NCBI GenBank assembly: GCA_964016885.1
Contig: OZ024743.1
Span: 200,446,001 to 200,510,000 of the forward strand
DNA: 64,000 nucleotides
DNA from: Eledone cirrhosa
Taxonomy: Eukaryota
Direction: 5' to 3'
Shown here piece after piece: positions 48,581 through 52,872 of this stretch (its first letter is position 1; each line of letters opens with the position of its first letter). A program made the translations under genes and the position numbers. The notes beneath the pieces are model-generated. The model had not been told where the DNA came from, searched no databases, and was given only the letters and a program-made list of their open reading frames with translations.

Positions 48581-48659
<79 letters not shown>

Positions 48660-48727
48660 TTAATATTGATGAGATTTTACAGGACTAGAGCTGTTTCATT
48701 CTTTAGAATATATTTATATATATATAT

Positions 48728-48931
48728 AACGAAGGAAATGTGGTAAGGAACCAGATGGACCATAACGCACCAAAGTACTCAATACTTAGGGTAGTAGAGT
48801 GGGTAATAGGAACGAGTAGGACCCCGACGGCTGAGCTCAAGCCGTTTCGACGGCTAATTCTTGACTAGTCCAGAATTAGCCATCGAAATGGCTTGAGCTC
48901 AGCCAGCCGTCGGAGTCCTACTCGTTCCTAT
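48728..48931 (-). mobile_element. Short fold-back copy of PLE-like family A
   Basis: Arms 48806-48861 and 48872-48931 plus a 78-nt tail; TA-flanked. Confidence 0.85.
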
Positions 48932-49109
48932 ATATATATATATATATAGTTTTAGTTTTGCGAGGTTTTTGATATGAAATCGTGTGTCGAAACAAATATT
49001 GTTATACTTGGGGAGGGTCATATTTGTGTAATATTGCCAGAATTAATAACAGAACACACTCACTGTTTGGTTGGTTTTCGCTTTTCGCTTCTGTGTCCTA
49101 TATATCGGC

Positions 49110-49727
49110 TTAGATAGGGCTAGACATAAGATAGGGAAAGCCATCTCATGGTAGGGCAACCAGAGATACCAGAGTGTCATGTTTGTGGACGCTACCCCTA
49201 GAGGGAAAATAGCTAACCAGTGTAGAAAGGCCCTGAGAAAGACCCACTTAAAGATTAAGGTGGTAGAAAAGCCAGGAACCACCATAAAATCCCTGATCAG
49301 CAAAACCTACCCTTTTAAGAAAACACACTGTACTAATAGGAAATGTATAATATGTAAGGTAAACCCCCGGATAAACTGTAAAACTAGAAACGTAGTCTAT
49401 AGCATAAGATGTACAGAGGGTACTTGCAGAAACATGACAACAACATACATAGGCGAGACAGCTCGTAGCATAGGTGAAAGGATAGACCAACACTGGGGGG
49501 AACTAAAAGGACGAAAAAACGGTTCAGTACTATACGAACATACTAGACAACAACACAACGGTAACATAAACAACATAGAAATTAGAATAATATCTAAACA
49601 TAGAAAAGACCCAGCAGATAGGCAAATCAGAGAGGCCAGTGAAATAGAACTTAGAAGGCCAAGGCTAAACAGAAAAAATGAATGGAATAACAACAACACC
49701 CAAACAAACAACACTGACCTAAGATAA
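49110..49727 (+). pseudogene. PLE polyprotein C-terminus: Cys-rich linker plus GIY-YIG endonuclease (Naiad/Neptune-like)
   Basis: ..SVMFVDATP..KVVEKPG..CTNRKCIIC..VVYSIRC..YIGETARSIGERIDQH..RQIREASEI..PRLNRKNEW; the reading frame extends upstream to 49110 through one TAG at 49152. Confidence 0.9.
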
Positions 49728-50012
49728 GTATAAATAAATAAATAAATAAATAGATAAATAAATAAATAAATAGATAAATAAATAAATAAATAAATAAATA
49801 CATACACAAACACATATAAACACACACTGGTAAAGATAGAATACATTAACCAATACACAGCCACCCAATCACGAACACACATCAAACAAAACACTATACA
49901 CACACGCAAACGCATGCGCAAAGAAGACAAAATAAAATAAACAAATAAGTAAATATATAAACAGACTAAATAAAGATGGCGTAGAAAATACAATGCAACG
50001 GGAGGAAACAAT

Positions 50013-50058
50013 AGCACCACTGACGATGTTGCAGATGTGCAACGAAAGAACTTTGATA
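50013..50058 (+). ncRNA. Minimal HHR-like motif in PLE 3' region (degenerate stems I/III)
   Basis: CA-CTGACGA-T-GTTGCA GATG TGCAAC-GAAA-G AA C-TT-TG. Confidence 0.55.
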
Positions 50059-50280
50059 AACTATATATATGTGTTTGTATCTATATTGTATCTGTATTTT
50101 TTACCGTTGGTCAGTCAATGGCAACATTGAGGAGCGAATAAGTTAGATTACCGATATAAAGGACACAGAAGCGAAAAGCGAAAACCAACCAAACAGTGAG
50201 TGTGTTCTGTTATTAATTCTGGCAATATTACACAAATATGATCCTCCCCAAGTATAACTATATATATATATATATATATA

Positions 50281-50392
50281 GGAACCAGTAAGACCCCGAC
50301 AGCTGAGCTCAAGCCGTTTCGACGGCTAATTCTGAACTAAATGGAAATTTATCCTGGTATTTAAATAGCCGATCTTCTCAAGGGGTAATTCC
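50281..50392 (-). ncRNA. Type I HHR, U3-A8 core variant (inverted copy)
   Basis: Minus strand ACCCC-TTGAGAA-GATCGGCTA..TAGCCGTC-GAAA-CGGCT TGAGCTC AGCTG-TC-GGGGT. Confidence 0.8.
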
Positions 50393-51319
50393 ATATATGG
50401 TCAAAGTGATTGTCAAAAATCAGTAGTAATTCTGTGGTTGCAATTTAGTAGGGGAGATGGTGGCTAAACCTGCCAGTAGGAGAAAGAGGGGAGGGGGTGG
50501 AGTAGACCCAATCAAGCGTTGGTAGTGCCAGCTACAGCTGGGCATGAGGTCAAAGGAGATACAGGGGAGGGGGAGGGGGAGGAAGTCGGAACGGTAGGTA
50601 GAACAATGGGGGGTAGAAATATATATATTTTTCCGTATTCTACCTTTACTTCGTACGAACTTTCATGTAGCTTGTTTTAGATCTTTTAGAGTTAGCATTA
50701 GTATATATTTTTCTCGGGACTCAGAATTATTATCTCGTACTAGTTCACTTTGCTGCACTGGGTGGTTGCTGGCATTGTGCCCGGGATGGAAACCGTTATT
50801 GTTTATTTCGCGGTAGTCTCTTTAGTATTTTGGCCCCTTTTGTTGACCCGTCACCGTATCATTTACGTACTTATACCTCTTAAAAGGGTCCTTGCCTATT
50901 CCGTCCCACCTAGTTCTTTTACTTATTTCGTTATTTCTTTATTTCTTTCTTTACTTCTTTCTTTCTTTATTTATTTATTTATTCTAGCCTAACAATAGCT
51001 AGAGACCTAGGTCGTAGAATTTAATTTACTTTACTTTTTTCTTTACACTTATTTGCTTTTCTTCACTCTCAGTATTTTTTCTTTCCTATATATTTCTACC
51101 CCCCATTGTTCTACCTACCGTTCCGACTTCCTCCCCCTCCCCCTCCCCTGTATCTTCTTTGACCTCATGCTCAGCTGTAGCTGGCACTACCAACGCTTGA
51201 TTGGGTCTACTCCACCCCCTCCCCTCTTTCTCCTACTGGCAGGTTTAGCCACCATCTCCCCTACTAATTTGCAACCACAGAATTACTACTGATTTTTGAC
51301 AATCACTTTGACCATATAT

Positions 51320-51431
51320 GGAATTACCCCTTGAGAAGATCGGCTATTTAAATACCAGGATAAATTTTCATTTAGTCCAGAATTAGCCGTCGAAACGGCT
51401 GGAGCTCAGCTGTCGGGGTCTTACTGGTTCC
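51320..51431 (+). ncRNA. Type I HHR, U3-A8 core variant
   Basis: GGAATT ACCCC-TTGAGAA(51331)-stem II-GAAA(51392)-CGGCTG GAGCT CAGCTG-TC(51414)-GGGGT CTTACT GGTTCC. Confidence 0.8.
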
Positions 51432-51535
51432 TATTACCCACTCTACTACCTCAAGTATTGAGTACTTTGGTGCGTTATGGTCCACCTGGTTCCTTACCAC
51501 ATTTCCTTCGTTATATATATATATATATATATATA

Positions 51536-52872
51536 GTATATGCCCCGTGGGGTAAACCAAAATAACCCAAGATGCATACCCGACTCTGCACGTTAGGTAA
51601 GAACATCGCCTGAGCCCGGACAGGTTGACTCGGATTCCACTGACTTTCAGTCAATACCTTACACCTATAGGACAACATACCTCAACCAGAGTGACATACT
51701 CCAATATGGCCGGTCCACGCACTCCCCATGCATGTGTACCTTTTCAATCGAGTATCCATACTCTCCACGTATTCCATTTTGGAACACGTATTATTTGTTC
51801 CGTATACAGGCCCAAGTGTACATCTCATACTCCTCCTGTGTACTATCTCATATGCATACACGTCCCTTCTTTTTGATATATCTCTATGTGACGTTATATG
51901 TATATTTTTAATATATTGTATATTTCTTTTTTATATGTGTATATATGTGTGCGTATATGTATATGTGTATGTGTATGGATATATGTATGTAGTTATATTG
52001 TTTATATATGTGCATGTTTACTACAAGATACATCCGTTAATGTATGACGTTATATGTATATTTTAGTATATTGTAGTTTTTTTTATATATGCGTATGTAT
52101 GTGTGTGTATGTACATATGTGTGTGTGTGTGTATGTGTATATATATATGTGTGTATATATATATATATATTTATATATGTATATATATATATGTATGTAT
52201 GTGTATGGATGTATGTATATGGTTATATTATAACAAGATGCATCCTTTCATGTATGACCCTTGTATGACCCATTGTGTAGCTTTATTGATGAGGGACTTA
52301 TTTTATTACATGTTATCCATGTGCAACCTGCAGTATTCTTCTCCCCATTTTTTCACATATATTTACCTAAACTGCGATTCTGTTTTTTTCTCTCTCTCTC
52401 TCTTACTGCTCCCTCGTTCTCTCTGTTTCTCCTACTTTCTTTCGCCCCCTCTGTCATGTCAGTTAACTCTTCCTCACACTTCCACTCACTCACTCACTGT
52501 TTCTCCTCTTCTCACTTCACCCCGTTCGTGACGAAAACATTTTCTCTCTTTCTCACATTTGGATTCGTTCCCGAAAGGCCTTTTTTCTAAGCGCTCATAT
52601 ATTCACCTAGCTTATTTTAACAGAATAACTATGAAGCTTGTTCCCTTCCTTCTACGGTTAGCTCTCCTCTTTGTTGTTATCTTGTCTCACTCGCTTTACG
52701 CGTTTTAATTGTCCTAATAACTTAATTTAGTTATTATTGCACCGGCGTGAGGTATATGATTTTTAATGCAATGAAATATCTATGATCGTCGGCAACTCAC
52801 TGATGAGGGACTTATTTTATTACATGTTATCCATGTGCAACCTGCAGTATTCTTCTCCCCATTTTTTCATAT
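51536..52872 (+). mobile_element. Degenerate PLE-like element with terminal direct repeat
   Basis: ~69-bp direct repeat 52287-52355 / 52801-52869 beginning TGATGAGGGA; weak GIY-YIG-like peptide traces (TLHVR*EHR, ILEHV..YRP) at 51580-51820. Confidence 0.5.

Follow-up and report, generated by a model that had tools for sequence, protein, structure and literature searches.

The insertion of Penelope-like elements (PLEs) into (TA)n microsatellites, Octopus included, is already published (PMC8557442; the papers cited here are drawn on in part). That work reports (TA)n insertion for Naiad_Obim, Naiad_Ovul, Hydra-1_Obim and nearly all Hydra families, proposes a zinc-finger linker as the cause of the preference, and describes an inverted 5' copy and a one-sided tail as PLE hallmarks. 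TA landing pads have a further precedent in MuTAnT, TA-targeting Mutator-like transposons, although these differ in being plant DNA transposons with 9-nt duplications, and their filled sites have ~15 TA repeats per flank compared with 9 at empty sites (PMC4486113). In a lizard PLE, Poseidon of Anolis, the protein was shown in vitro to nick AT-rich DNA on both strands and to extend them, and reverse transcription from two internal start sites defines the tail (PMC11167929). Here we describe a stack of repeat pieces at 48581-53029 of a 64-kb window of Eledone cirrhosa DNA (contig OZ024743.1, positions 200,446,001 to 200,510,000; coordinates below are those of this window). The stack is a pile of short separate pieces from at least four repeat families joined via TA microsatellites, and it was likely built by serial insertion carried out by PLE proteins made elsewhere in the genome. 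The initial annotation had interpreted the TA tracts as the landing pad of a community of hammerhead-bearing retroelements, which is right but already known, and the pile is a textbook-quality example of this published habit. Its only unusual part is a candidate hammerhead, read from the letters of one family (D), in which cleavage site, GAAA and CUGAUGA occur in that order.

Pure TA tracts at 48581-48656, 48715-48728, 48929-48948, 50259-50280, 51512-51535, 52869-52882 and 52935-53029 part the distinct pieces; from left to right they measure 76, 14, 20, 22, 24, 14 and 95 bp, the 76-bp and 95-bp tracts being the outer ones. Insert 1 (48657-48714, reverse strand) is a 58-bp 3' fragment of family A, insert 2 (48729-48928) a two-armed mini-palindrome of family B, insert 3 (48949-50258, forward strand) a two-armed member of family C with a 5'-truncated forward arm, and insert 4 (50281-51511, forward strand) a two-armed, non-coding member of family B. 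They are followed by a stretch foreign to family D (51536-52286), a non-coding partial tandem of family D (52287-52868, forward strand) and a sixth piece (52883-52934), which comprises 52 bp from a high-depth repeat and is bounded by TA at either end; no strand is assigned to this piece, to the non-D stretch, to insert 2 or to the outer TA tracts. Matching within the window bore out the presence of four families: inserts 2 and 4 belong together (131/139 identical), with a third family B copy at 27879, and relatives of insert 1 lie at 8310-8354 and 33391-33504. Inserts 1-4 thus represent three families (A, B twice and C) parted only by 14-22 bp of (TA)n.

Five consecutive TA-separated inserts in one (TA)n array had been proposed. 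The first four stand, but the fifth is composite, with family D present only from 52287. Beyond the window, evidence comes from contigs and reads of public runs (X1, X2, X4, X5, X6 and X16), and in X1 the summed contig depth, which is not equivalent to copy number, is 395-1,771 over 51580-52275 as against 67,000-178,000 over 52276-52971. This step near 52276 recurs in runs X2 and X4, and the repeated part begins at 52287 without a TA tract on its left side; the depth step and the missing TA together indicate that the supposed fifth insert is two different things. Its left part consists of an unrelated low-depth diverged repeat and decayed microsatellite, with no protein match and no match elsewhere within the window. 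A single array is therefore interrupted by ~750 bp of other sequence at 51536-52286, and the simplest and better reading of the region is that older sequence of this length separates two neighbouring TA tracts. The sixth piece, overlooked in the initial annotation, has kin at 849-896 and lacks a ribozyme motif. That relative is part of a TA-flanked piece at 843-1108 with a hammerhead motif at 1010-1056.

Inserts 2, 3 and 4 are two-armed palindromes whose arms are identical at 55/63, 106/108 and 339/345 positions, respectively. The arms join at a handful of bases common to both (the three junctions having GG, TA and a short palindrome), and only one arm of each insert carries a terminal tail, 80 nt long in family B and 52 nt in family C. 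In insert 2 the tail-bearing arm spans 48729-48867 (sense on the reverse strand) and the tail-less arm 48866-48928 (forward strand), the whole corresponding to two 3' halves of the family B hammerhead; many similar fold-back joints are seen in the contigs. Insert 3 has an inverted arm at 48949-49108, with its 52-nt tail at 48949-49000, and a forward arm at 49109-50258 that ends tail-less. The arrangement is reversed in insert 4, where the inverted arm (50281-50625) is tail-less and the forward arm (50626-51511) bears the 80-nt tail at 51432-51511; no match to this insert was found when 156 related proteins were compared with the window. The stack resembles the Naiad and Hydra (TA)n PLEs in TA targeting, 5' truncation, partial tandems, an inverted 5' copy, a one-sided tail and hammerheads near the 3' end, whereas the tails are 52 and 80 nt here and 30-40 nt in the described elements (PMC8557442). 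The one-sided-tail palindromes of B and the partial tandem of D form a non-autonomous PLE footprint without coding capacity; A amounts to just 58 bp. Families A-D look like new members of the TA-inserting PLEs and their dependants, and short words from the four families gave 0/4 matches in the PMC8557442 supplement with the Octopus Naiad and Hydra consensuses.

Several comparable structures occur elsewhere in the window. A TA-flanked two-armed insert at 21826-22482 has a 208-bp inverted arm and kin at 29403-29553, and a TA-flanked insert at 7860-8272, with a palindromic relative at 40061-40293, carries a hammerhead motif at 8186-8121 (reverse strand). A diverged B-like palindromic relic at 53813-53930 adjoins a TA tract, and in the family A copy at 33386-33504 the inverted arm turns back at the predicted cut region of the hammerhead.

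Coding sequence in the stack is confined to family C, where the end of a Penelope-like open reading frame (ORF; 49155-49727, forward strand) comprises a CX4CXXC linker and a GIY-YIG endonuclease with CCHH residues and no reverse transcriptase (RT) part, a stop codon lying just upstream of it in this copy. Relatives of the ORF number 2,342 at a cut-off of E 0.001, the nearest named proteins being from Octopus vulgaris and O. bimaculoides, in keeping with an octopus-like host. Its product shares 54% identity, across 55% of its own length, with an Octopus RT-domain protein. Pfam GIY-YIG was matched by 17/50 aligned relatives, and the linker and CCHH residues are conserved among the relatives. The structural model (predicted local distance difference test 89) matched the GIY-YIG domains of I-TevI and UvrC (best E 3.5e-3, probability 1.0), and a PDB sequence search gave weak matches only, to histone H2B (by chance) and to I-TevI (E 0.018). 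In longer relatives (P0001, P0035 and P0076) an RT lies upstream of the endonuclease, whereas this truncated copy is without one. The initial annotation included autonomous elements in the community, yet none is present in the stack: the only part of the window matched by the 156 related proteins is 49110-49667, which leaves the window without an autonomous copy, and no reverse transcriptase sequence was found in the 64 kb.

By eye, family C shares with the Nematis clade a short spacing from the linker to the next Cys (CX2-5CxxC) and V-x-Y, as well as the CCHH, YIGET, R..REA and LN motifs (PMC8557442 Fig. S2). Other assignments were set aside. Neptune rows have an insertion of ~25 residues between the linker CxxC and the endonuclease, which family C lacks, and Hydra lacks the CCHH retained here and has a CxCX5C linker (PMC8557442). 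In Naiad the endonuclease is N-terminal, whereas here it ends the ORF, with RT upstream of it in the relatives. Given the C-terminal endonuclease, the Nematis-like spacing and the CCHH, family C is neither Naiad nor Hydra, and the stack points to a Nematis-like endonuclease as a TA-targeting enzyme. A metagenome search with a single protein query recovered related loci in 0/103 candidates. No RNA run containing the sequence was listed among 18 public runs, which is uninformative about expression. Elsewhere in the window, 11440-11916 gave a weak zf-RVT match (E 0.0007, below the cut-off), probably a relic of a long interspersed nuclear element (LINE), beside a 200-N gap.

The mechanism described for the lizard element can be applied to these inserts by analogy, as nicking of both strands and two RT starts would account for arms and tail alike, although Poseidon belongs to a different clade, lacks the zinc-finger linker and prefers ATT rather than (TA)n (PMC11167929). 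We infer that the endonuclease would nick both strands of the self-complementary TA tract and that reverse transcription, primed by each nick, would begin at either of two internal sites of the element RNA, one start giving the arm with a tail and the other the arm without, after which the two copies would be joined at a few shared bases. Every insertion would leave TA on either side, so that the site would stay a target. Families B and D, and probably A, which code for nothing here, would borrow the enzyme, and family C is a reduced copy of a family that codes for protein. Trimming of the RNA would fall to the hammerheads, and the landing site can be explained without them. The tail-less end of family C sits in the AACA loop of a predicted 7-bp hairpin resembling the AC-rich stem loop of the Poseidon paper (PMC11167929); the family B end gave no match to the AC-rich stem-loop pattern.

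That TA tracts serve as a landing pad is supported both by the other copies in the window and by raw reads. Outside the stack, three of four ends belonging to the same families lie directly against a TA tract of at least 10 bp, compared with 1.2% of random non-repeat positions in the window; ends inside the stack abut TA by construction. Among the loose ends listed, the tail-less end of family B passes into (TA)n in at least 90 contigs of X1 and at least 3 of X5, and in a second comparison in at least 27 contigs of X2, 5 of X4 and 2 of X5. The exit of family B at 51434 into (TA)n is represented by at least 2,976 of 25,178 raw reads of X16 (agreement 0.82), and the 3' end of D continues as TA in at least 546 reads (agreement 0.58), again among those listed. 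At least 17 listed raw reads, with 4 starts, show a tail-to-tail joint of B to inverted D across TA that is foreign to the window, indicating that mixed-family stacks recur. Family B agrees with an X5 contig in 245-246 of 246 letters and family C differs at 15 of 456, which points to different ages of the pieces. The stack also offers ready substrates for the question named in PMC8557442, namely how PLEs find microsatellites and form inverted structures.

A number of observations weigh against serial PLE insertion into TA. In the contigs and reads of the public runs no sequence spans the whole stack. The loose-end counts come from tables of the best 24 of 1,760 and the best 24 of 747 rows, in which neither A nor C has a row of its own, and the restriction-site-associated DNA (RAD) reads may be copies of one another. 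The window is saturated with TA (307 tracts of at least 10 bp), and neither the 5' end of D nor the family A copy at 33386 adjoins a long TA tract. With no RT in the window, no family except C is tied to a protein; family C itself gave no match of its own in a Pfam search of 9 window ORFs, and helix I of its hammerhead motif is only 2 bp long.

A rival reading is insertion without sequence-specific targeting, in which any AT-rich or fragile DNA may be entered and the pieces accumulate here since long TA tracts are prone to frequent breakage and insertions in them, being harmless, are kept. The Helitron-like end and the unclassified fragment of this locus abut TA tracts too, the preference of the lizard PLE protein is for AT-rich DNA (5'-ATT-3') and not for TA repeats as such (PMC11167929), and a safe-haven idea has been argued for MuTAnT (PMC4486113). 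Against this, the joints to pure (TA)n are exact and repeated although CA, CT and GA tracts are common in the window, and the (TA)n preference of the Hydra and Naiad clades is itemised by family (PMC8557442); we regard non-specific insertion as unlikely. It is less likely still that the TA tracts are later than the inserts, seeded by element ends or untemplated additions and lengthened by slippage. The tail-less end of B does stop at an internal TAT, the junction of insert 4 lies within an internal (TA) run, and the inner spacers are short and even at 14-24 bp. TA is nevertheless found at both ends of unrelated families, including 5'-truncated ends at differing positions, and comparison of empty and filled MuTAnT sites places TA there before insertion (PMC4486113).

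The initial annotation also suggested that insertion may regenerate TA tracts and feed microsatellite expansion, an idea that has a precedent in MuTAnT (PMC4486113) but that the spacers of the stack do not demonstrate. The spacers themselves can be compared with the rest of the window, which has 33% GC, is microsatellite-rich and contains 370 TA tracts of at least 8 bp. The inner gaps of 14, 20, 22, 24 and 14 bp are more even than six random cuts of one 265-bp tract (P 0.005, post hoc), which disfavours a simple partition of one long tract; TA tracts in the window have a median of 17 bp and 36% of them fall within 14-24 bp, so that the spacers are of ordinary length here. One inner spacer borders a non-PLE piece, and no empty allele was seen in the public-run contigs and reads. 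Least probable of all, with only a very slight chance of being correct, is an assembly chimera in which unrelated repeats were stitched across TA tracts. The junctions are indeed microsatellites and no contig bridges the stretch, yet the inner spacers are just 14-24 bp long, each piece has private differences from its own family, and raw reads show a similar mixed-family junction elsewhere. Serial insertion by PLE proteins made elsewhere is the reading that we prefer.

About a dozen hammerhead-like motifs had been noticed in the window, and a type I descriptor search agreed with this count, giving 13 matches against a mean of 3.1 and a maximum of 9 in 30 block shuffles of the window; at the top score there were 3 matches against 0.2 in shuffles. 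Inspection left nine credible complete cores (1010, 8186, 8369, 22203, 29917, 33445, 50020, 50381 and 51331) plus several 3' halves. Seven motif sites outside the stack are followed by a TA tract within 270 nt downstream, compared with 36% of random positions, the threshold being post hoc and the tract counted for motif 33445 not being its own flank. An Rfam scan returned no hammerhead among the best 150 of 410 matches, all of them microRNA families on microsatellites. The statement that every insert bears a full or partial hammerhead holds for the inserts then named, each of which has such a motif whole or in part, but not for the motif-free sixth piece. In insert 1, helix II, GAAA, helix III and the GUA site are present and the CUGAUGA box is absent; complete cores occur in family A kin on the reverse strand at 8369 and 33445.

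Family B carries a complete type I hammerhead motif (51326-51419, forward strand) with a U3-A8 core, UUGAGAA at 51331, helices I, II and III of 5, 8 and 6-8 bp, and a predicted cut after 51414. A second copy lies on the reverse strand at 50381-50298, and the two have the best scores in the window. The motif corresponds to the minimum-energy fold, and its letters are identical in contigs of X4 and X5. Self-cleavage is predicted from this type I core with its 3-8 pair and helices I-III. In two loose-end consensuses, among the rows listed, N7 varies and A8 is constant; the U3-A8 covariation is reported for ~1,300 Schistosoma PLE motifs (PMC4209133). Family B differs from the minimal PLE hammerheads of that report in its stable helix III of 6-8 bp and long loop II, owing to which it could fold as a monomer. 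A metagenome search for the family B motif gave 0 matches. Closer to the minimal form is the type I motif of family C (50020-50053, forward strand), with CUGACGA, an unpaired U, GAAA, a 6-bp helix II closed by G-C and a 2-bp helix III; in the minimal PLE hammerheads, likewise, a base is left unpaired after A9, G10.1-C11.1 is present and helices I and III are both short (PMC4209133). A hammerhead-like reading at 50754-50813 was rejected as a dispersed repeat end (also at 24376 and 24575) without a core. Outside the stack, a type I motif with a 9-bp helix II and a long loop lies at 22203-22321, inside the insert 21826-22482, and a compact minimal motif at 29917-29947 resembles those of the Hydra clade (PMC8557442 File S2).

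The family D unit is ~514 nt long with a 69-nt direct repeat at both ends (69/69 identical), and head-to-tail joints were seen in one X2 contig (52875 to 52363) and one X5 contig (52857 to 52381). Its candidate rearranged hammerhead (52736-52806, forward strand) has the order site, GAAA, CUGAUGA and four helices. Helix III (52750-55/52776-81) has 6 bp, with the predicted cut after 52756, and helix I (52757-62/52794-99) is paired at 5/6 positions in this copy. Directly after CUGAUGA the strand offers only 1 pair for helix II; the partner of the pre-GAAA strand lies upstream instead and gives a displaced helix II of 6 bp (52736-41/52767-72). An extra fourth helix of 6 bp (52742-47/52787-92) connects helices I and II at their far sides. 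At 52796 the majority base of the family (670/671 X16 reads), already known when helix I was drawn, mends the helix I mismatch, and the one at 52745 (388/408) turns a G-U into an A-U pair in the fourth helix. By eye, all four helices can be recognised, in unchanged order but formed by other letters, at the published 3' ends of Naiad_Obim and Naiad_Ovul, and in Naiad_Esco helices I, III and the fourth are visible and the displaced helix II is not; the published sequences of Naiad_Mmer, Omin and Adux gave no such box (PMC8557442).

Functional assignment of this motif is more delicate, since several points tell against a ribozyme. In a strict window-wide test, 21/200 and 29/300 shuffled windows equalled its score, conditional shuffles did so in 204 and 146 of 20,000 cases, the descriptor was composed after the site had been seen, and a CA/TG microsatellite site on the reverse strand at 21109 beats it on the four-helix score. 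A type I reading of D with a loop of ~260 nt was discarded, as its score of 12 is within the shuffle range (mean 1.9 matches per window); bases of the helix in that reading are changed in 66-79 of ~265 reads. One family D contig of X4 starts at 52756, beside the predicted cut, with TA and A letters before it. We give an even chance to the proposal that D is a non-coding Naiad hitch-hiker whose RNA is cut by a newly wired hammerhead, with helix II drawn from an upstream strand and four interlocked helices. Cephalopod Naiads were inactivated long ago (PMC8557442), which counts against a Naiad driver for D.

Among described ribozymes, the type-SGC hammerheads, HRIMA-1, resemble D in the order site, GAAA, CUGAnGA, in a short linker from helix I to helix II and in an extra helix tying the far sides, and differ in that the helix II partner of D lies upstream of the site block and not after CUGAUGA (PMC10085705). 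They are reported almost only from metatranscriptomes, with none in an animal genome (PMC10085705). The non-LTR (long terminal repeat) retrozymes of animals are like D non-coding and head-to-tail with a hammerhead-like motif, whereas the D unit measures ~514 nt against 170-400 nt, is present here as 1.1 units and has a motif that is not type I (PMC7229834; bioRxiv 10.64898/2026.07.22.740005). No description of a permuted Naiad hammerhead was found in the literature searched, subscription papers, Repbase and bioRxiv supplements lying outside the search. If the reading of D is true, a clade reported as hammerhead-less (Naiad) carries a hammerhead, one that is not circularly permuted and the first such in an animal genome. 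Should the motif cut, non-circular hammerhead permutations, known from environmental RNA, would reach into animal retroelements as well, and the 'half-core' Naiad hammerheads would find an explanation.

On its left flank the stack adjoins a Helitron-like 3' end (48553-48580, forward strand) belonging to a high-depth repeat. Its hairpin (48553-48568) and CTAG (48577-48580) form the left edge of the first TA tract, and the piece shows the 3' hairpin and CTRR followed by T that define Helitron ends (features drawn from PMC3789558). Three head-to-tail copies of a 91-bp unit at 48021-48292 run directly into this piece, and in runs X5 and X6 the same unit precedes poly(A), resembling the 3' end of a short interspersed nuclear element (SINE) or LINE.

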